From Thermoanaerobaculia bacterium (GTDB lineage: Bacteria; Acidobacteriota; Thermoanaerobaculia; Multivoradales; SZUA-115), in NCBI GenBank assembly GCA_046331405.1, contig JAXLQX010000004.1, positions 216,207 to 280,206 on the forward strand: DNA of 64,000 nt. The letters run 5' to 3'. Each line of letters begins with the position of its first letter. Position 1 is the stretch's first letter. The notes under the pieces were generated by a model. The model ran no database searches, was not told the origin of the DNA, and was given only the letters and a program-made list of their open reading frames with translations. Positions 2,361 to 27,215 of this stretch are shown here, piece after piece. A program made the translations under genes and the position numbers.

Positions 2361-3308
2361 GTGGACCCAGATGCCAGCGCTTTCCACCAACCCGTCCTGC
2401 TCGCCGAAGTCGTCGAGCTGCTCGCTCCCGAGCGGGGCGGGCTCTTCGTGGATGCCACCCTCGGGCTGGGCGGCCACGCCGAGGCCCTGCTCGAGGCCGG
2501 TCGCGAACTGCGGCTCCTCGGCATCGACCAGGACCCGCAGGCCCTCGAGCTCGCTGCTCGGCGCCTCGCCCGCTTCGGCGAGCGCGTGCGCCTGGTGGCA
2601 GGCAACTTCCGCCACCTCGGCGAGCTGGTGGCGGGCGCCCGGTGGGGGGCTCCGGCCGGCATCCTGGCGGATCTCGGCGTCTCCTCGCTGCAGCTCGAGC
2701 GGGGCGAGCGCGGCTTCTCGTTTCGTCGTGACGGACCCCTCGACATGCGCATGGGCGCGGTCGGCAAGACGGCAGCGGACGTGGTGAACACCTACTCGGA
2801 GGCGGCGTTGGCTGAGATCTTCCAGGAGTTCGGCGAGGAGCGAGAGTCGAAGCGGGTGGCCCGGGCGCTGGTTGCGCGCCGCAAGGTGGCCCCTTTCGCC
2901 ACCTCCGCCGAGCTGGCGGAGACGGTGCGGCGGGCCAAGCGCTTCGACCACCCCGGCCCCGGGCGCGAAGGGCGGATCGACGCCGCCACCCGCGTGTTCC
3001 AGGCCCTGCGGATCGAGGTGAACCAGGAGCTCGCGGCCCTGCCCGAGATGCTCGACGAGGCGGTGCGCCTGCTCTCGGCCGAGGGCCGGCTGGTGGTGAT
3101 CTCCTACCACAGCCTCGAAGACCGCATCGTCAAGCACACCCTGCGGGACCTCGCCCGCGGCGAGGTGGACGAAGTCACCGGTCGCCCCCGCGCCGAGACC
3201 CAGCTGATCGAGGTGCTCACCCGCAATCCGGTCCGCCCCTCGGAAGAGGAGATGCTGGCCAACCCCCGTTCTCGATCCGCGCGGCTGCGTGCCGCGCGGC
3301 GACTGTAG
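2361..3308 (+). CDS. rsmH: 16S rRNA (cytosine1402-N4)-methyltransferase RsmH (MraW)
   Basis: HQPVLLAEVVELL...FVDATLGLGGHAEALL SAM-MTase motif; position after mraZ. Confidence 0.95.
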   Translation: MDPDASAFHQPVLLAEVVELLAPERGGLFVDATLGLGGHAEALLEAGRELRLLGIDQDPQALELAARRLARFGERVRLVAGNFRHLGELVAGARWGAPAGILADLGVSSLQLERGERGFSFRRDGPLDMRMGAVGKTAADVVNTYSEAALAEIFQEFGEERESKRVARALVARRKVAPFATSAELAETVRRAKRFDHPGPGREGRIDAATRVFQALRIEVNQELAALPEMLDEAVRLLSAEGRLVVISYHSLEDRIVKHTLRDLARGEVDEVTGRPRAETQLIEVLTRNPVRPSEEEMLANPRSRSARLRAARRL

Positions 3309-16637: not shown

Positions 16638-17909
16638 ATGATTCTTTTCGACGAGGAGAAGGGCACCACCCGGCCCACCGCCGTCGCCGTGCCGGAAGCG
16701 GTGAACGTGCCGGCGAAGATTCGTGTGGTGGGTGTGGGCGGGGGCGGCGGCAACGCCGTCAACCGCATGATCGATGCCCAGCTGGGTGGCATCGAGTTCA
16801 TCGCGGCCAACACCGATCTGCAGGCCCTGGTGAAGTGCCGGGCGCCGCTCAAGCTCCAGATCGGCGACCTCTTGACCAAGGGCCTCGGCGCCGGCGCCGA
16901 CCCGGAGATGGGCCGCAAAGCCGCCCTCGAGGACACCGAGAAGATTCTCGAGCTCTTGGACGGCGCCGATATGGTGTTCTTGACCGCCGGCCTGGGCGGC
17001 GGTACCGGCTCGGGCGCAGCGCCGATCATCGCCTCGCTCGCTTCCGAGATCGGCGCGCTCACGGTGGCCGTGGTCACCAAGCCCTTCGCCTTCGAGGGCC
17101 GGCGCCGCATGCAGATCGCCGAGCAGTCGATCGAGGAGCTGCGCGGGGCGGTGGACACCCTGATCACCATCCCCAACGAGCGGCTGTTGTCGTTCGTCGA
17201 GCGCGGCACGCCGCTTTCCGAGGCGTTCCGCATCGCCGACGACGTGCTGCGCCAGGCGGTGCAGGGCATCTCGGACCTGATCACCATCCCCGGCGAGATC
17301 AACGTCGACTTCGCCGACGTGCGCACCATCATGACCGGCATGGGCATGGCCCTGATGGGCACCGGCGTGGCCAAGGGCGAGAACCGAGCCCTCGAGGCGG
17401 CGCAGCGGGCGATCTCCTCGCCGCTTCTGGAGGAGACCTCCATCCAGGGCGCCAAGGGCGTGCTGCTCAACATCTCCGGCGGTCGGGACATGACTCTCCA
17501 CGAGGTGGCCGAAGCCGCGCGGATCATCTCCGAGGCGGTCGATACGGACGCCAACATCATCTCCGGCATGGTGATCGACGAGGCCCTCGAGGACGCCATG
17601 AAGGTGACCGTGATCGCCACCGGCTTCGAGCCGGCGAGCCACCACGTCACCACCTCGGCCACCCTGCGGCCGCGGATCGCCCCCCCGGCTGCTTCGGTGG
17701 CCCCCCTGCGCCCGGCCGCGATGCCGATGCGCAGCGCCCCCGAGCCGGCTCCCTCCCGCCACGAGCCGGAGGACGCGGCGGCCGAGACGCCGTTCTACCG
17801 CAAGGCCATGGCCCAGTCCCGCAACGACGACTCCGGCGGCTTCGGCCCCAACTGGTCGAACGTGGACGACTACGACATCCCCACGGTGCTGAGGAAGCAG
17901 ATGGACTGA
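16638..17909 (+). CDS. ftsZ: cell division GTPase FtsZ
   Basis: [17 protein letters not shown] and tubulin signature [10 protein letters not shown]; Pro/Ala-rich C-terminal linker and conserved C-terminal peptide ([12 protein letters not shown]). Confidence 0.97.
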
Positions 17910-18048
17910 GGCAGGCCGTTTCTCCCTGCGTCGTACCCGGCTCCAGTCGAGCCCTGGCGCAAGCCCCCCTTCGCCACGCCCGGCTGGAGCCGTCCTGTCT
18001 TGATGCCCACCCTCAGATCTTCATCTTCGTTTATACTCCTCTCTTATC

Positions 18049-20511
18049 GTGGCCAACAGCAGCCAGGAACCCGCCCCTGGTTCCTCGCTCGCCGACTTCG
18101 TGGAGCAGGCTCTGCAGCTCGAGGGACGCTCCGGCGTGAGCGAGATGCTTCGGCTGCTGGTGACGAAGGTCCGGGCCTACGGGGCGATCTTGTGGGAGGA
18201 GTCTGACCCAGGTGAGGGCGGAGAGGGGAAGGAGACCTCCCTCTATGTGCTGTCCCAGTGGTTTCCCACAAGCCAGTGCGTGATTCACAACCTGCCGCTC
18301 GACTCGCTCACCGGCGACGCGATTGCCAGTGGAAGGCCCGTCAACGTGCCGGACTGGAGGCAGTACCCACGCACCTTCCGAAGCCACCCATTTCTTGATG
18401 AACACGGAATTGGTTCCCTGTGCTCGATTCCGCTCCTCTACGCCGATGGCAAGCGGGGTGCCCTCAACTTCTATCGCCAAGCAGTGGATCGGTTTACCCC
18501 AAGCGAGCAGCAGCTTCTAGAAAAGGCTGCTCGCCTCTTACCGGGGCTCTACCAGGCGCTGGTCCACCGTTTCGGCTTCGACCTCCTGGGCCAGGCGGCG
18601 AAGGTACTCCTAGGGGCGGCGGTGGCCGAGGCAACCGCCGCCCCAGCTGCGCAGAGTGCAGCTATCGGATGCCTCGAGGAGTTCTGTCTCCTCTTGGCGC
18701 AGGCATTTGGCGCGCTAGAAGTGAGCTTGGTGCTCGAGAACGACTGGGAACATCCGGGGCGCTTCCCAGTGGTCGCTGCCACTTGGGAGCGATGCAAGGC
18801 TTGGCCGGCCTTTGAGAGAGGGAAAGGCCAGGGTGTCACAGGTTGGGTGATCGACAACGATGAAAGCCAAAGAATTTTCAATCTCGCGTCGCTGACCGGC
18901 AAGACCACCAGGAGGGGGAGGCGCCCGCCGCGGCCTTTGAAACGTCTGCTGGAGCAGCTGGTGGTCGCCGCGCAGGAGACGCTGAAGGAGGACCTGGACC
19001 CGACCATCCCGGCCCTGAGCTGTATCGTCTCCCCGGTGCGAGGAGGGGGGCGAGTGTTGGGAGCCCTCCGGTGCAGCATTCTCCGGAGAGACCCCTTCCT
19101 TTTTGCCCGGCGTGAGCTTGTCTTGCTTGAGCTCCTCGCCAGCCAGGTGGGCTCCTTCTGGCTGAATGCAATGAAGCACGCAGAGTCCTTACGGGAGAAC
19201 GAGTCCTGGAAGTCCCTTGTCGAAAGCGTGGGCTCACTGAATCACTTTGTCTACTCGGAGCTCAAGGGCGCACGGGCGGATGAGCACTCGGTCTTCGAGC
19301 GAGCTCTCAAAGTTGTCGGTTCAGCAATCTCCGGCGCTGAGATACTAGATATCCGCCTGATCGACCCGACTGGGCAGTTCTTGTACTTTTTCCACACTGC
19401 CGGCGAGGCCTGGACTCAGGGTGACCCAGACCTTGTCGCGCGCCGGAAGGACAGGAAATTCCCATTGGGGCCTGGGAAGCCCCAGTCCGCAGGAGCCTAC
19501 GCTGTTCAGCACCGGGATGTGTACGTGATGGAGGACGTCACTCGAGACCCTTACTACAACGAGATCTTTCCGAACACTCGGCGAATGATCATCGCCCCGA
19601 TCCGGGTGGAAGACGAGATCTACGGCGTACTCGACATCCGAGGTACTGGCCCGAGGCCGTTCCATCGCGACGCCAAGCTCATGGCCGATCTTCTCGGCCG
19701 CCAGCTCGGTCTCTATCACTACCTGGGAACGAGTCTTACCCAGCTCAGGAAGGCGGAGAGTAAGCTGAGCGCATCAGTTGATGTGTTGAAGCTGCGACGC
19801 AAGAAGGAAGCTCAGACTTTCGAGGACTTCGCTCATCAGTTGAAAGGTTCACTGCACATGGCGCACTGGCGAGCCAGAGCCGCTCTAGATGAAGACCCAC
19901 TGAGCCCTCGCCACAAGCGAGGCCTGAGAGCGATTCGGGGGCAGTGTGGCAAGGCTCGCCGAGCCACTCACTCGATGGCCTTCTTTGCCGATCTCGTGGC
20001 GGAACGCGAGCCTGAGGTGCGTCTGCAGAGACTAGAGACAGGCAATCTAGTTCGGATGTTGATCGAAGCTGCAGACGACCAACAGTCTCTCCTCGATCCA
20101 GACCTCAACTTGCGTTTTGATATTGTGAGAGACTCGTTTGGCGTTCTCGGAACAGTTGCGGTGAATGCCGACATAGGACTCTTGGAACAGGCAGTGGGCA
20201 ATCTACTAGACAACGCGGCGAAGTATAGCCAACCTCGCACAGCAGTTGTCGTCTATGGTGGGCGTACAGGAAGCGATCGATTTCACATCTCTGTCCAGAA
20301 CAAGGGGCTGCCGATTCGTCCCAGCGAAGTGTCGCGTCTCAAGGAACGCGGGTTTCGAAGTGAAGAGGCCCAGCTTGTAACAGGGGAGGGGTCAGGAATT
20401 GGTCTCTGGATTGTGGACCACATCATGCGAGCCCAGGGCGGCGAGCTGATCGTTCAGCCAACTGCTCCTTCGGGGTTGAACGAAGTAAAGCTTGTGCTCC
20501 CTGGCAAGTGA
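18049..20511 (+). CDS. cytoplasmic multi-GAF-domain sensor histidine kinase
   Basis: 820 aa, no TM segments; GAF-like N-terminal regions; H-box FAHQLKGSLHMAHW; N-box NLLDNAAKYS; G2-box GEGSGIGLWIVDHI (HATPase_c). Start at GTG 18049 is uncertain (weak RBS). Confidence 0.75.
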   Translation: MANSSQEPAPGSSLADFVEQALQLEGRSGVSEMLRLLVTKVRAYGAILWEESDPGEGGEGKETSLYVLSQWFPTSQCVIHNLPLDSLTGDAIASGRPVNVPDWRQYPRTFRSHPFLDEHGIGSLCSIPLLYADGKRGALNFYRQAVDRFTPSEQQLLEKAARLLPGLYQALVHRFGFDLLGQAAKVLLGAAVAEATAAPAAQSAAIGCLEEFCLLLAQAFGALEVSLVLENDWEHPGRFPVVAATWERCKAWPAFERGKGQGVTGWVIDNDESQRIFNLASLTGKTTRRGRRPPRPLKRLLEQLVVAAQETLKEDLDPTIPALSCIVSPVRGGGRVLGALRCSILRRDPFLFARRELVLLELLASQVGSFWLNAMKHAESLRENESWKSLVESVGSLNHFVYSELKGARADEHSVFERALKVVGSAISGAEILDIRLIDPTGQFLYFFHTAGEAWTQGDPDLVARRKDRKFPLGPGKPQSAGAYAVQHRDVYVMEDVTRDPYYNEIFPNTRRMIIAPIRVEDEIYGVLDIRGTGPRPFHRDAKLMADLLGRQLGLYHYLGTSLTQLRKAESKLSASVDVLKLRRKKEAQTFEDFAHQLKGSLHMAHWRARAALDEDPLSPRHKRGLRAIRGQCGKARRATHSMAFFADLVAEREPEVRLQRLETGNLVRMLIEAADDQQSLLDPDLNLRFDIVRDSFGVLGTVAVNADIGLLEQAVGNLLDNAAKYSQPRTAVVVYGGRTGSDRFHISVQNKGLPIRPSEVSRLKERGFRSEEAQLVTGEGSGIGLWIVDHIMRAQGGELIVQPTAPSGLNEVKLVLPGK

Positions 20512-20531
20512 CTAGGTTTGTGGAGCAGAGA

Positions 20532-20993
20532 ATGAGAGTTGTTTTGGTGGAGGACGACTACCCACAAGGTATGGCTACAAGGGAGGAGATCTTTTCCCTT
20601 TTCCCCCAGGCGCAGATTCTGTGGATCAAGTCGGAGTCCGCATTTCGCCTGGCCCTCAGCGACCTGGCAGCAGAACCCCCAGATCTGTTCATCCTCGATG
20701 TGATGGTCCGGTGGGCTGGCACAGAGCGACCGATACCAGAGCCACCGATGGAAATCAAGAGGGAGGGCTTCTTCCGGGCAGGTCTCCGGTGTCAGAGGCT
20801 ACTGGCAGCAGAGCCTCGCCTTCGAAGCGTGCCAGTGTTACTCCTCTCAGTTCTCGAGGAACGAGATCTGTCGCTATCCTTGCGACAGTTGGACCCTGCC
20901 ATACCGACAGTCCGCTTCTTGCAAAAGGGGAGAGAGAGCGTCGTGGAGGCGATTGAGAAGATTCTCCATGCGCGCTCTTCGAGACCCAACTGA
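20532..20993 (+). CDS. single-domain (CheY-like) response regulator, no output domain
   Basis: MRVVLVEDD..., phospho-acceptor Asp in DLFILDVMV, conserved S/T (LLSVLE) and Lys (RFLQKGRE); ATG 20532 preceded by GGAG; reading frame overlaps the HK stop (GTGA). Confidence 0.7.
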   Translation: MRVVLVEDDYPQGMATREEIFSLFPQAQILWIKSESAFRLALSDLAAEPPDLFILDVMVRWAGTERPIPEPPMEIKREGFFRAGLRCQRLLAAEPRLRSVPVLLLSVLEERDLSLSLRQLDPAIPTVRFLQKGRESVVEAIEKILHARSSRPN

Positions 20994-21005
20994 GCCCCGA
21001 ACCAG

Positions 21006-22340
21006 CTACGCTGCAAGCGCATGCTCCAGGGCCGCGAGGTTCGCAGGATCGAGGCCGCGGACGAGCTGGAGTTCCTCGAGCACACCGCCTGGGAAGTCCT
21101 CTTGCAACAGTTCCTTCCCCACAAGCAGCTGTAGGGCGAACGTAGCTTCTTGCCCCAAAGTTTCTAGAGACCTCGCCAGCAGGAGGATTGACTTTTCGAG
21201 AGCCTCCGGGTCCGGTTCCCTGGCGGGCCATCGCTCCACGGAGCTCCGCGCTGCAGCGATCAGGCCTTGGAGCTTGAGCTCGCCAGAGTGGAGGACATCC
21301 ACGAGGTCCGCTACGGTGTGCTTCAGGCTGGCTTCGGTGGAGTGGTCACTCGCAAAAGGGTTGCTGGAGCGAGTGGCTTCCAGAACCTGAGCGATCGTCT
21401 CGACCAGAGCTCGGGCTTCGCTGGGTACATGAACACGCACGGCTTGGCCATCGCAAAGCACTTCAAGGCACTCAACCGCAGCCTGACTCGGGAGCAGGGC
21501 AAAGGCGTAGTGCCAGAGGATAGCCTCGTCGTTGCCAGTCCAGAAGAAGAGCCGAGGCAAGCATTCCGTCGCCCAGGCTGGCCAGCTCTGGCGGTGCGCC
21601 ACCAAGAGCATCTCGAGATCGGGCTGGGCGACGTTGAATACCGCCTGGCAGGTGTTCGCAACGAGAGCGCGAAAGGACTCGCGGCGATCAGGTCGATCGC
21701 GGTAGCGGTCCGCTATGAGCCGAAGGCCGTAACCCAGGGCCTCGAGGTCTGGTTGCGCCGGGCGAGCACCTTCCACCAAGGTGTTCCGCAGCCCCCAGAG
21801 TCCTCGTTCTGGGTCTCCGGGAAGCCTGGCAGTACCGTCGTCGGCTACCATCGCCAGCCACTCGGACTCAAGGCGGCTGTCTAGCTGGTTCTCCATCAGA
21901 GCATCTCGGAGAACAGCTTGGAGCGGAATTCCCAGGTACTGGCCGGAAAGGCCTGCCAGCCGAGCGGGAGTCGAGTAGATCTCGAACAGCGGGCCCGCCA
22001 GGGCTTCGGGGCAGCGCAAACCCGCCGCCAGCATCAGTGCGTTGTAGAGCAGATCCTGTTGTCGATGAGCCAGGTCCCTAAGCTCAGGCTGGGCATGGAG
22101 CAGTCGAGCCAACCGCTTGGCCAGTTTCAGCTCGGTCTTCTGTCGCTGGCCATCCAGGGGAAGCGCTCGCAGAAGCCAGAGGTAGGGTTCGTCTCCGTCC
22201 CCCGACTGAACCGGCAGCCCGTAGCCTTCGAGCAAGTCGGCGAATTCCTCGAGCGACCAGTCTCTTCGGCGGAGGAACGCATCAAGCGCAGCGCGCACTC
22301 GCTGAACGCAGTCGGGAATTGCCGGTTCCTGTTCCTGCAT
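21006..22340 (-). CDS. hypothetical protein (444 aa), no recognisable domain; acidic and Leu-rich
   Basis: Clean minus-strand ORF with ATG preceded by GGGGAG; protein-like composition in the low-GC island; no P-loop, nuclease or other motifs recognised by eye. Confidence 0.55.
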   Translation of the reverse strand: MQEQEPAIPDCVQRVRAALDAFLRRRDWSLEEFADLLEGYGLPVQSGDGDEPYLWLLRALPLDGQRQKTELKLAKRLARLLHAQPELRDLAHRQQDLLYNALMLAAGLRCPEALAGPLFEIYSTPARLAGLSGQYLGIPLQAVLRDALMENQLDSRLESEWLAMVADDGTARLPGDPERGLWGLRNTLVEGARPAQPDLEALGYGLRLIADRYRDRPDRRESFRALVANTCQAVFNVAQPDLEMLLVAHRQSWPAWATECLPRLFFWTGNDEAILWHYAFALLPSQAAVECLEVLCDGQAVRVHVPSEARALVETIAQVLEATRSSNPFASDHSTEASLKHTVADLVDVLHSGELKLQGLIAAARSSVERWPAREPDPEALEKSILLLARSLETLGQEATFALQLLVGKELLQEDFPGGVLEELQLVRGLDPANLAALEHALAA

Positions 22341-22370
22341 GGTGACTCCCCGCCCGAGGCGTGGGGTGGC

Positions 22371-23465
22371 TCAGTATAACGTGCTGGGCATCCAGCGGTC
22401 GATGTGTGCGGGACCGTAGGTATCGGACAACCTCTTGTGGTGTGCCCTTCGTGCGGACAACAGGTCCCCGGAGACTCCTGTTCCGAGTCTCGCGATCGCC
22501 CAGCCGGCCCGCCTCCAGTCGGAGATCCTGTAGTCGATCTCGGTATGAAGCCACTCTGGGAGGAGAGGCTCCCGGCGCGAGAAAGAACGCAGGGCCATAG
22601 GATGGCCGCCGTCTCGGGCTTCCAGATGGTCGGGCGAAGGGAAGTGGAGGTAGTTCCAGGTTCCCGCATCGAGCAACGTCGGTCGCGCGAGGGTGCCCAC
22701 TCTGCCCGCTTCGTAGCAAAGCATGACCAGCCAGCGACCGGGAGCCTTCTCCATGCCGAGAACCTCGGCCCAGACCTCTGGAGGCTGGCTCAGGTACGGC
22801 TCAAACTGAATCCAGGAGGTCACCCAGGCCGGTTGAAATGGATGCTTTGCGCGGAAGCGAGCCATAAGGGCAAAGAGGGCTCTGAGGAATCGGCTCTGTT
22901 CATCGCGGCTCTTGCCGAGGAGGTAGGAATCCAGCCAGGATTCAAGGCTCCTGGCGCCGGTCAAGCTTGGCCTCATGAGCTTCAGCCGTCGGTACAGAGC
23001 GTTGCGGGGAGCTTCTCCCGCCCATTTGAGTACGGGCGCGAGCCCATTCAGATCGAGTAACCGGGCCAGGAGAAGCTTCTTGCTCACTCTGCCCCGCGCT
23101 GCAAAGCCTCCCAGAACAATGTTGCCGCCGGGCCCGCCGTTAAGGGGCTCGAGAGCAAAGTCAGGGTCATACCTCCTGCGCACTCGGCTCTCGAAGTTCT
23201 CTTTCAGCGCATGTCGGAGTTCCCTCGGAGTCCGCGGTTGTTCGCTGGCAAAGCGGAGCAGGCCAGACCGAGCCGGGCTCACCCGATGGTCGTAGCGGAT
23301 GCTCTCGGCCACGGCCTTGTCCTGATCGTTGCCTCGCGCTGACAACTCGGTGAGCGGGACATCCAACACCCGGCCAGTAGCGTTGTCCAGGCGACCCCAG
23401 ACCGGCAGTTTCGACAGGTCCGTCCCCATGAGCCTAGAGATACGAATGAGATTGTAACTTCGCAT
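22371..23465 (-). CDS. hypothetical protein (364 aa), no recognisable domain; first gene of a two-gene minus-strand operon
   Basis: Start set at MRSYNLIRISRLMGTDL (ATG 23465) because the upstream ORF-track extension (to 23591) has noncoding-like composition. Ends 30 nt before the next gene. An AT-rich promoter-like region lies at 23466-23523. Confidence 0.5.
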   Translation of the reverse strand: MRSYNLIRISRLMGTDLSKLPVWGRLDNATGRVLDVPLTELSARGNDQDKAVAESIRYDHRVSPARSGLLRFASEQPRTPRELRHALKENFESRVRRRYDPDFALEPLNGGPGGNIVLGGFAARGRVSKKLLLARLLDLNGLAPVLKWAGEAPRNALYRRLKLMRPSLTGARSLESWLDSYLLGKSRDEQSRFLRALFALMARFRAKHPFQPAWVTSWIQFEPYLSQPPEVWAEVLGMEKAPGRWLVMLCYEAGRVGTLARPTLLDAGTWNYLHFPSPDHLEARDGGHPMALRSFSRREPLLPEWLHTEIDYRISDWRRAGWAIARLGTGVSGDLLSARRAHHKRLSDTYGPAHIDRWMPSTLY

Positions 23466-23523
23466 AGAACGCCGTGCAATAGGGCCAAAGCAATGTACTC
23501 CATTTGCATGACAACATGACCCC

Positions 23524-24099
23524 ATGCCCCTCTTCCACACCTCCCGCGAGCGCTGGCTTTGGCTCGCGGCCCTGGGGTACACGCTTCTCATCTACAGCAC
23601 CCTGGTAGTGGCCAAGCAGGCCACGATCTTTCTGCGCGAGCGCAATCTGCTGCGGCTCACGGTGGGGCTGGCGTTCGGGGTGGTGGCCGTGGTGGCGGTG
23701 GTGCTGCTCGCCCGGCTGCGCCTTCCGGGGCGAGCGTGGCTCGCGCTTCTCGGCATCGCTCTGGGCTATGCCGCGGTGTTCCCGTTCGCGGTGGCTCCCG
23801 AGGAGCGGCTGCATTTGATCGAGTACGGTGGGCTCGCTCTGTTGATCTTCGGGGCGCTCTCGGAGCGTTCTCGGGCGCGGGTCGGCGCCGGCGGCCGGCC
23901 CTGGCCGCTCAGGCTCCGCGCCCTGGTGGCGCTGCTCTTGACCTCGCTCTTGGGCTTCGGGGACGAGCTGATCCAGGGCTTGCTGCCATCGCGGGTCTAC
24001 GACCTGCGCGACGTGGCCTTCAACGCTGCGGCAGCGGCTCTCGCCCTGGCGGCTGCGGGCCTACTCGAGTGGAGCCGGGGAGTTTCTGGAGTGCGCTGA
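23524..24099 (+). CDS. VanZ-like family membrane protein
   Basis: 4 TM helices plus VanZ motifs ERLHLIEYGGLALL and GFGDELIQGLLPSRVYDLRDVAFNAAAAALA. Confidence 0.6.
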   Translation: MPLFHTSRERWLWLAALGYTLLIYSTLVVAKQATIFLRERNLLRLTVGLAFGVVAVVAVVLLARLRLPGRAWLALLGIALGYAAVFPFAVAPEERLHLIEYGGLALLIFGALSERSRARVGAGGRPWPLRLRALVALLLTSLLGFGDELIQGLLPSRVYDLRDVAFNAAAAALALAAAGLLEWSRGVSGVR

Positions 24100-24102
24100 G
24101 GT

Positions 24103-24937
24103 TCAGGCCGCCTGGCGGATCGAGCTGAGGATGGCCGACTGAGTCTGCTCGGTCTCGAAGCGCAGCAGGGCGAGAAACGGCTCTTCGAAAACCACCGCCC
24201 AGCCCTGGCCCTCGCTCGCCACCAGGGCGGAACGACAATCGCCCCCTACCGGCGCCCCTTCTGCCCCTTTCGCGAGCAGGCGCCGAGCCTGGTCGGCCAG
24301 AGCCTGGGCCTCGAGGAGGGCGAGCTTCTTCTGGCCGTGGGCCGCCACCGGCAGCAGCTCACCCTCCAGCTCGAGAAAGCAGAAGCGAACCGGAACCGCG
24401 CCCGAGAGCTCCTCGAACCAGTCCGGCAGGGGGCCGAGGTCCACCACCAGCTCCGGGCAAGCGGCCTGCGCTTCCGCGATCAGCTCGAGAGCCAGGAAGG
24501 CGTGACGGGCGTTGATCCGGCCACCAGCCAGGGGGCTCGGGCGCGAGAGCCTGCCCCGGCCCTCGGCGATCGCCCGGGCGAGGGAGCCCAGGGATTCGGC
24601 CACGTGGCGCCTCAGGGCGGCTTCGAGCTCGGCCTCGTCGATGCCACCGGCGCCGCGCAGCCCTTCGAGAGTGGGGTAGCCCTGGGCCAGGCTGTGCCGA
24701 CAGAGCTCGCCGAGTCGATGCGGAGAGAGACCGCCCAGCTCGGCCAGCTTCGCCCCCAGCTGGTGGCTGCCTCGGGAGTTGGCCCAGCAGATCCGCTGGT
24801 CCTCCACCAAGATCTCGCCGAGCACGGAGTTGCCCGGATCGGCCAGCGCCTGGAAGGCCACCGCCTGGTGCGGCGCGCAGCGCTCGGTGGCCGCCACCAC
24901 CTCGCAGAGGCTACGCAGAAGCCTCACGCCGGCCACC
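24103..24937 (-). CDS. hypothetical protein (~278 aa); either a separate gene translationally coupled to the upstream 145-aa gene or the frameshifted continuation of it
   Basis: Protein-like frame begins at GTG 24937, 27 nt inside the upstream gene. The track ORF 24103..25266 has a noncoding-like N-terminal extension in this frame. Confidence 0.4.
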
Positions 24938-25348
24938 TTCCAGCTGCCCCAGCTGAGCCGGAGCGAGCTCGAGCACCGCCTCGAAGGCAAAGCGGGCGCA
25001 GTAGAGGAAGGTATCGGAGTCGATCTGAGGGGTGGCCACGCTGAGCAGCCCGAGCTTGCCGTCTCCGACGGCCAGCATCTGCCACTCGCCGCCGAGGAGC
25101 ACCATGTCCCAGATCTTCTGGCTCTGAGCCTCGGGCTCTCCCGTGAGCTCCGAGAACAGCAGGTCCAGGCCCCGCGCGGCCGGCAGGGTGTCTCGCAGCC
25201 TGCGCGCGTGGTTGCGCAGGGGCGAGAACCAATCGACTCGCGTGGCGGTGGAAACCAGATGCTCACCGGTCTCGAGATCCAGGAGGCTCACCGCACGGCA
25301 GAACGGGCTCACGCTCATCAGGTCTTCCAACAAGGGTGCAAGTGCCAT
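24911..25348 (-). CDS. hypothetical small protein (145 aa), loosely roadblock/LC7 (MglB)-like
   Basis: MALAPLLEDLMSVSPFCRAVSLLDLETGEHLVSTATRVDW...; alpha/beta pattern and length resemble roadblock/LC7 by eye only. Confidence 0.4.
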   Translation of the reverse strand: MALAPLLEDLMSVSPFCRAVSLLDLETGEHLVSTATRVDWFSPLRNHARRLRDTLPAARGLDLLFSELTGEPEAQSQKIWDMVLLGGEWQMLAVGDGKLGLLSVATPQIDSDTFLYCARFAFEAVLELAPAQLGQLEGGRREASA

Positions 25349-25559
25349 GTCGCCTCCTAGTGCCAGTCACTTCAAGAAAAAGAAATCATATAACATTGAT
25401 ATTGATGCACAGCTCATTGCTGTCTGAAGGGTAGCACGAAACGATCGCTGTTGGAACGTGGTTTTGGGGAAGCGATCACGAAAAGGGGAATGGCTCCGTC
25501 GCAGACTCATTGGGAGAGCTAAGGATGCTTGGCAAGGCCGAGTCGACGGCGAAGAATCG

Positions 25560-27215
<1,656 letters not shown>

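Follow-up and report, generated by a model that had tools for sequence, protein, structure and literature searches.

A block of four genes lies between ftsZ and a VanZ-like gene in a Thermoanaerobaculia bacterium (Acidobacteriota) and was very probably inserted there by horizontal transfer in one Thermoanaerobaculia lineage. The block covers ~5.6 kb (17.9–23.5 kb) of the window, that is, the whole stretch of 64,000 nucleotides (nt) of contig JAXLQX010000004.1 (positions 216,207 to 280,206) that was analysed, and its genes are named A (364 amino acids, aa), B (444 aa), C (a receiver) and D (a histidine kinase). The same four genes were found in ~15 independent loci, which makes the block an instance of a recurring cassette rather than a one-off island, and the four genes most likely form one functional unit. 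The cassette, which is apparently undescribed and recurs in distantly related soil bacteria, is best classed as a two-component system whose output would be non-canonical and mediated by proteins. Taken as a whole, a foreign and conserved four-gene unit in which the kinase–receiver pair controls the A–B pair is on balance the probable reading of the block.

Insertion between ftsZ and vanZ

The original prediction, made from the letters of the sequence, had seen a low-GC island directly after ftsZ, and GC windows, GC content at third codon positions (GC3) and codon usage all bear it out. In 500-nt windows the GC content is 0.55–0.64 over 17750–23750 compared with 0.66–0.78 in the flanks, a drop from a level of about 0.69–0.75, and the cassette overall has a GC content of 0.61 compared with 0.69–0.71 on either side. 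The GC3 values of the kinase gene (0.69), the receiver gene (0.64), the 444-aa gene (0.70) and the 364-aa gene (0.72) differ clearly from those of ftsA, ftsZ, vanZ, a 274-aa gene, a 145-aa gene and thiC, which range from 0.83 to 0.94, and codons ending in A or T are 3–20 times commoner in the block genes than in the flanking genes. A frame-resolved scan of all 64 kb marked 17.7–23.7 kb as the sole multi-kb stretch with a best-phase GC3 below 0.80, the remaining dips being gene boundaries or intergenic regions.

The position of the block was compared with 80 related Acidobacteriota genomes, which were retrieved via FtsZ (71–85% identity) and searched with ten local proteins. The ftsA–ftsZ pair is collinear in all relatives with enough upstream sequence, and none of the 80 carries any of the four block genes at a distance of up to 10 kb from ftsZ. 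A vanZ gene is located downstream of ftsZ in ~19 of the 80, mostly only ~30–260 nt away, and in three of the relatives (L008, L015 and L083) thiC is also found downstream, as in the window. The tblastx synteny with L008 and L015 reaches 17909 and restarts at 23476–23515. The absence of the genes near ftsZ in the relatives, combined with the ftsZ–vanZ adjacency, therefore indicates that the four genes were inserted into an ancestral ftsZ–vanZ junction, and the horizontal acquisition proposed at the outset is supported by composition and, independently, by synteny. In the two closest relatives (L004 and L005; FtsZ 85% and FtsA 87% identical), ftsZ is followed by neither vanZ nor the cassette and other genes stand there instead, showing that the site downstream of ftsZ is variable in the clade.

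The native left flank is ftsZ itself (16638–17909, + strand; GC3 0.94; Pfam Tubulin and FtsZ_C), the last gene of the dcw cluster, which is collinear with the relatives up to its stop codon. The left boundary falls within the intergenic region upstream of the kinase gene (17910–18048), which contains an imperfect hairpin, CGGCTCCAG...CTGGAGCCG. The right boundary falls within the intergenic region that separates the divergent genes A and vanZ (23430–23523), in which the synteny with relatives resumes. The native right flank encodes a VanZ-like membrane protein (23524–24099, + strand; GC3 0.86), identified by Pfam VanZ at E=1.1e-6, slightly below the gathering score, and by tblastn in the relatives. 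Scans for promoters and terminators at the island borders gave nothing above chance. The proteins are annotated as "hypothetical" in NCBI in the Thermoanaerobaculia metagenome-assembled genome (MAG), and identical copies of the locus are found in three other metagenome assemblies.

Recurrence of the four-gene cassette

Cassette loci were gathered by two routes, namely from the loci encoding relatives of B and from a scan of JGI metagenomes with an alignment of A, which gave 19 loci. The order A→B→ ←C←D was found in ~15 independent loci. The look-ups of B gave the cassette in L084, L090/91, L092/93, L113/114, L116/117, L118, L119 and L120, where L090, L092, L113 and L116 are the members counted from the pairs, and the scan with A gave loci with C and D in L095, L098, L102, L105, L109, L111 and L112. 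In the loci of the latter route, B follows A wherever the downstream sequence suffices. A collinear version, D→C→A→X→B, lies on a single strand in L108, and the contigs L085–L089 end too early for the full cassette to be judged. The co-occurrence of the 364-aa/444-aa pair with a GAF-kinase/receiver pair, for which the original prediction had suggested a neighbourhood search, was thus found repeatedly.

The receivers of the cassette measure ~145–165 aa and its kinases ~805–857 aa, and in the loci with coordinates read the A–B and D–C gaps are at most 50 nt and the two pairs range from a 49-nt overlap to a gap of ~60 nt, stop to stop. In the window copy, 20 nt separate gene D from gene C, and the convergent stops of gene C and gene B are 12 nt apart. 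Moreover, when the copies in 11 loci are compared pair by pair, the identities for A, B, C and D correlate with one another (Spearman 0.57–0.86), as expected of a jointly inherited unit. The genes flanking the cassette are different at every locus and include PFOR with peptidases, MacB-type permeases, a beta-lactamase and Kdp genes, among others. The labelled hosts include MAGs of Pyrinomonadaceae, "Acidobacteria bacterium" and Planctomycetaceae. Across contigs with a GC content of 0.37–0.70, the cassette has a GC content of 0.37–0.64 and is typically 4–13 points under its own flanks. The window copy shares only 25–41% identity with any other cassette in the sample, so that its donor must lie outside the sample. 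Neither a described defence system with a GAF kinase and a receiver nor such a four-gene cassette was found in the searched literature, which offered only Detocs and the conservons as analogies.

Several individual loci deserve mention. In L113 (8852–19714; GCA_038322995.1), the full cassette is directly followed by genes for a Tn7-like TniQ, a TnsA-like protein, a helix-turn-helix (HTH) protein and TniB, and this cassette may be transposon cargo. In L120 (1191–8682), the cassette is located between the rpsP–KH–rimM operon and ffh, which are usually adjacent in bacteria, making this a second split housekeeping neighbourhood besides that of ftsZ and vanZ. A HigB/HigA-like pair adjoins the cassette in L102, and a PadR regulator adjoins it in L116 and L118.

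The four proteins, their proposed relay and the neighbouring genes

The gene map drawn from the sequence at the outset, with a GAF kinase, a receiver and convergent 444-aa and 364-aa genes, matches the analysis of open reading frames (ORFs) and Pfam domains. Gene D (18049–20511, + strand) encodes a soluble histidine kinase of 820 aa, as had been predicted, with three GAF matches and HATPase_c (residues 708–810, E=4.7e-13) by Pfam and no predicted transmembrane segment (maximum KD19 1.74). A family alignment placed the H-box at His596 (codon 19834–19836), the N-box at residue 719 and the G2 box at residue 779, and the cassette kinases conserve the corresponding motifs FxDLxHQLKxP, LLDNAxKYS and GEGSGIGLW. 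Pfam gave no HisKA match in D, which indicates that its DHp region is divergent. Orthologues of D are 28–41% identical and are present in all cassettes compared.

Gene C (20532–20993, + strand) encodes a divergent stand-alone receiver of 153 aa. A GTG at 20508 would give 161 aa; the alignment favours the start at 20532 (MRVVLVEDD), and residues are numbered here in the 153-aa form. The window copy has no Pfam match, Response_reg included, even at E=10, and some orthologues show faint or weak Response_reg matches. The top PDB matches of the C family profile are all receiver domains (PleD, E=4e-4), and the acidic pocket E-D-D, the phospho-acceptor Asp56 (codon 20697), Ser106 and Lys132 are kept in all four aligned orthologues. 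The bare response regulator of the original prediction is recognisable only by its family profile and active-site residues. Another conserved feature of C is an insertion of ~25 residues after beta3. D and C together keep what characterizes a two-component pair, namely the H, N and G boxes on one side and the receiver pocket, Asp, Ser/Thr and Lys on the other, and a phosphotransfer from D to C, which is supported by adjacency and co-inheritance, would be their joint function.

Gene B (21006–22340, − strand) is convergent with gene C and encodes a 444-aa protein of an uncharacterised family. A word-indexed search of 5.8 billion proteins matched B only to itself, and an indexed profile search with the B alignment gave at least three proteins. 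A full HMMER scan of 1.84 billion representatives recovered 444 cluster representatives at E≤1e-3 and 70 at E≤1e-30, so "orphan" calls from a word index alone are unreliable for families at ~30–35% identity. The family representatives, along with a confidently predicted fold, ruled out an orphan or non-coding reading of the 444-aa ORF. B is confidently modelled as an ARM/HEAT-like alpha-solenoid that includes a small beta element; its invariant residues are N151, Q152 and W161, and no catalytic signature is present.

Of the top 150 relatives of B, ~7% carry an N-terminal extension of ~130–160 residues. In all six scanned B relatives this extension is an XRE-type HTH, giving at least six fusions, and one further domain, a cold-shock domain (CSD), is carried by one B relative. 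In the window B, as in the majority of its relatives, no DNA-binding domain is recognisable. Considering the XRE- and CSD-bearing relatives and the predicted helical scaffold, B looks like a binding scaffold or adaptor that may in some lineages also contact nucleic acid. In the sub-type with HTH-bearing B (L090, 9619–11470; L108, 11027–12569; P0045, P0108, P0120, P0124, P0130 and P0152), an extra 132-aa gene without Pfam or PADLOC match lies between A and B. A different fusion was seen in L089 (683–2260; P0008), where B is in frame with a HATPase_c domain equivalent to kinase residues ~636–819 and lacking the H-box. The contig is 2.8 kb long with ~3x coverage and the fusion could arise from the usual layout only through an inversion, so that it may be real or an assembly artefact and is taken as a hint only.

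Gene A (22371–23429, − strand) encodes the second uncharacterised family, and its product is a putative enzyme or effector. The alignment with homologues makes the start at 23429 (352 aa) likelier than that at 23465 (364 aa); the residue numbering follows the 364-aa form. A word-indexed search found one relative of A with 36% identity, and P0003 is a homologue. In an alignment of 22 sequences, the C-terminal domain of A has invariant R261, T263, D266, H274, E304 and H307 and near-invariant S277 and H288. These residues lie around the motifs AGTxxRPTQLDAG, HFPSPP, GGHPMDL and PEFIHxQI (RPTxLDAG/HFPSP/GGHPM/PExxH being encoded at 22545–22685), and this pattern is a predicted signature of an active or ligand-binding site. 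The AlphaFold2 model of A is poor, with a predicted local distance difference test score of 54. Searches of A, B and C against Pfam, NCBIfam, PADLOC and PDB sequences, singly and member by member, gave nothing specific; a weak CopM/DUF305 motif match (E=0.05) was judged non-significant. The description of the two adjacent proteins as lacking recognisable motifs therefore holds for Pfam, NCBIfam and PADLOC, but they are not motif-less singletons, as both belong to conserved families. R261, S277 and E304 fall in the R-S-E order with spacings of 16 and 27 residues. The triad spacing of classical R-S-E toxins is longer than that of A, and an assignment of A as an ADP-ribosyltransferase (ART) found no Foldseek match and no Pfam or PDB sequence match.

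A clue to the role of A comes from L115 (106–6691; GCA_975000045.1), in which B, C and D are kept and an unrelated 572-aa HD-CE protein (PF24391, E=1.5e-21) with an HD-type motif replaces A. The possibility that this protein is a diverged A was rejected, since hhalign found it unrelated to the A family; it is therefore a replacement rather than a divergence. The place of A therefore acts like a slot for interchangeable effectors. The B protein of L115 has 655 aa with a long N-terminal extension without Pfam match, and an AAA_14/DUF4143 ATPase gene adjoins the kinase gene there.

These properties suggest a route by which the cassette may operate. With its three GAF domains, the soluble kinase D would detect a ligand or state inside the cell and autophosphorylate on His596, after which the phosphoryl group would pass to Asp56 on C, the lone receiver. 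Phosphorylated C, having no output domain, would then contact B by protein–protein interaction, and B, as an alpha-solenoid adaptor, would control the putative enzyme A in its swappable slot; the HD-CE protein of L115 would presumably act there as an HD-type phosphohydrolase. The relay order D→C→B→A is plausible, though held with slightly less than even confidence. The original suggestion of a receiver without output domain that acts through its two unknown neighbours is supported as regards linkage, by the ~15 loci and the correlated divergences; the protein–protein mechanism, like the phosphotransfer, the C–B–A contacts, the enzymatic nature of A and the biological role, is what we infer from these patterns.

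Beyond the block, a segment between vanZ and thiC contains the 274-aa gene (24103–24927, − strand) and the 145-aa gene (24911–25348, − strand), both without Pfam match, followed by an intergenic stretch of low GC content (25349–25559; 0.58–0.60) before thiC (25560–27005, − strand). The two genes are missing in the relative L008, in which vanZ and thiC are ~0.6 kb apart, so that 24103–25559 is a second variable segment beside the island, with genes of host-like GC content. A thiamine pyrophosphate riboswitch (27106–27213, − strand; Rfam RF00059, 60.8 bits) is located directly upstream of thiC and is the only Rfam match in the window. A second region of lower GC3 (1326–2400; 0.72–0.78) appears ordinary. 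It consists of an intergenic gap of ~580 nt, a 149-aa ORF (1905–2354) and the start of a 315-aa ORF (2361–3308), which by their position at the head of the dcw cluster are presumably mraZ and rsmH.

Related systems and alternative readings

Single-domain receivers signal through protein–protein contacts, and the cassette resembles the canonical two-component systems that contain them (CheY-type, DivK, Spo0F and SdrG-type) in that a kinase with H, N and G boxes stands beside an output-less receiver with phospho-acceptor residues. It differs from them in the divergence of C, which is too great for Pfam Response_reg, in the ~25-residue insertion after beta3, in the uncharacterised partners A and B, and in that the four genes move as a mobile cassette. 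A closer parallel is Detocs, which consists of the kinase DtcA with a TPR sensor, the lone receiver DtcB, proposed to act as a phosphate buffer, and the receiver-effector DtcC (Rousset et al., bioRxiv 10.1101/2023.01.24.525353). Both are mobile operons that combine a histidine kinase with a stand-alone receiver and swappable, unrelated effector enzymes, and neither has a DNA-binding response regulator. DtcC joins the effector to a receiver of its own, whereas Pfam, NCBIfam and PADLOC reveal no receiver domain in A or B, so that C, the only receiver of the cassette, must carry the signal. Furthermore, the sensor of the cassette has three GAF domains instead of TPR, the alpha-solenoid protein B is additional, and no Detocs-type PADLOC match was found in the cassette. 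The actinobacterial conservons (cvnA–D) are also four-gene, kinase-centred cassettes, with roadblock and GTPase partners (PMC13343842); Roadblock/MglB and small Ras-like GTPase domains were not found in A, B or C and conservons have no receiver, leaving a conceptual likeness only. The Xre–RES and DarTG toxin–antitoxin systems are set apart by the absence of sequence matches to the RES, DarT and ART families and of a Foldseek match, and by B, whose size far exceeds that of a typical antitoxin and which mostly has no HTH.

Several observations weigh against a mobile, functionally coupled unit. The intergenic DNA downstream of ftsZ is not alignable with the relatives, so that the exact junctions are unfixed beyond 17910–18048 and 23430–23523. 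No direct or inverted repeats above chance and no target-site duplication flank the block. The absence of an integrase and of a tRNA, remarked on in the original prediction, holds for tRNA across the window and, for integrase or recombinase domains, in the four island genes and the flanking genes that were scanned. The neighbours of the cassettes are mostly ordinary chromosomal genes rather than defence islands, and searches of the viral contigs of IMG/VR and the plasmids of PLSDB yielded no relatives of A or B. Pfam, NCBIfam and PADLOC contain no model for the families of A, B and C, which leaves their function without an anchor. Lastly, the A–B pair occurs without C–D within 10 kb, only in L107/L110 (10001–12145), which indicates that the kinase arm is not obligatory and suggests that A–B is the core and D–C a regulatory add-on. 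The genes downstream of A–B in L107/L110 encode a 253-aa protein without Pfam match and an aldo-keto reductase.

The lack of mobility marks at the site, together with the low identity of the window copy to all others and the want of an identified donor, is what could be said for an ancestral block whose low GC content came from weak expression or relaxed selection and which the relatives lost. Such a history is very improbable and largely refuted, as it needs loss in all 80 relatives, some with an 85% identical FtsZ, and repeated restoration of the ftsZ–vanZ junction, while the GC3 of the block is 20–30 points under that of every neighbouring gene and the same cassette occurs in unrelated contexts in other phyla. 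There is little more to recommend an absence of functional link, in which A–B would be an independent module, for example toxin–antitoxin-like, that merely tends to sit beside a GAF-kinase/receiver pair. The exceptions in L107/L110 fit this, as does the convergence of the two pairs, which makes them separate operons; yet all other loci that extend far enough contain C–D (~15 independent cases in different phyla), a collinear single-strand version exists in L108, the divergences of all four proteins are correlated, and the C and D orthologues are cassette-specific, with the insertion in C and the same architecture of three GAF domains in D. A self-contained second-messenger circuit, in which A (or HD-CE) makes or degrades a nucleotide-like molecule sensed by the GAF domains of D, is improbable as well. 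GAF domains are classical binders of small molecules and cyclic nucleotides, HD domains such as that indicated by the motif and HD-CE match of the replacement for A are typically phosphohydrolases including nucleotide phosphodiesterases, and the invariant His, Asp, Glu and Arg of A are compatible with nucleotide chemistry. However, A has no similarity to cyclase, synthetase or phosphodiesterase families, and the circuit, a matter of pure inference, leaves the role of B and the missing output of C unexplained.

The main alternative to the effector circuit is a transcriptional two-component system with a split response regulator, in which phosphorylated C would bind B as, or as the recruiter of, a DNA-binding output in response to a metabolite sensed by the GAF domains, with A as a co-regulated enzyme or accessory protein. 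The XRE-type HTH extensions and the cold-shock nucleic-acid-binding domain among the relatives of B, its confident helical scaffold without catalytic signature and the PadR regulator beside the cassette in L116/L118 speak for this reading, which is nevertheless rather unlikely: the window B and most relatives show no recognisable DNA-binding domain, A is linked to B as strictly as C and D are and can be replaced by HD-CE, which fits an effector better than a target, and the unrelated genomic contexts imply that there is no fixed local regulon. Within the preferred reading of a kinase–receiver pair controlling A–B, an anti-phage or conflict role is a more specific version. In such a Detocs-like module D would sense infection, C would relay or buffer phosphate, and B would restrain a toxic A until the released A (or HD-CE) stops growth. 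Its patchy, cross-phylum and mobile distribution with a GC content under that of the host, the swap of A for HD-CE, which recalls the Detocs effectors (10.1101/2023.01.24.525353), and neighbours such as the Tn7-like genes, the AAA_14/DUF4143 gene, the HigBA-like pair and an HTH_3–Peptidase_M78 gene make this role a possible one. It remains doubtful given that the PADLOC matches reflect only generic HATPase, REC and HTH similarity, the flanks are mostly housekeeping or ordinary genes, the ART lead for A was not reproduced by Foldseek, A and B differ from DtcC in lacking a REC domain, and IMG/VR and PLSDB gave no copies from phages or plasmids. More speculative still is the broadest version, a widespread mobile class of "two-component-gated effectors" in soil bacteria that would combine a cytoplasmic GAF kinase, an atypical lone receiver, the alpha-solenoid adaptor family B (at least 444 sequence clusters) and an exchangeable effector (A or HD-CE), act as immune or conflict modules inserting between housekeeping genes (ftsZ and vanZ, ffh and rpsP) and define two new families, one possibly an ART-like toxin.

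If this broadest version were true, the cassette would represent a second way, architecturally distinct from Detocs, of recruiting phosphorelay signalling for defence. If the cassette is a defence or growth-control module, it would widen the precedent of Detocs and bring in one new family of adaptors and one of effectors. Cytoplasmic GAF kinases and single-domain receivers are common, but for most of them the output is unidentified; in this cassette the strict linkage of the genes in different phyla singles out the output partners, which gives a concrete and testable four-protein circuit, and two sizeable families without a Pfam, NCBIfam or PADLOC model gain a genomic context.

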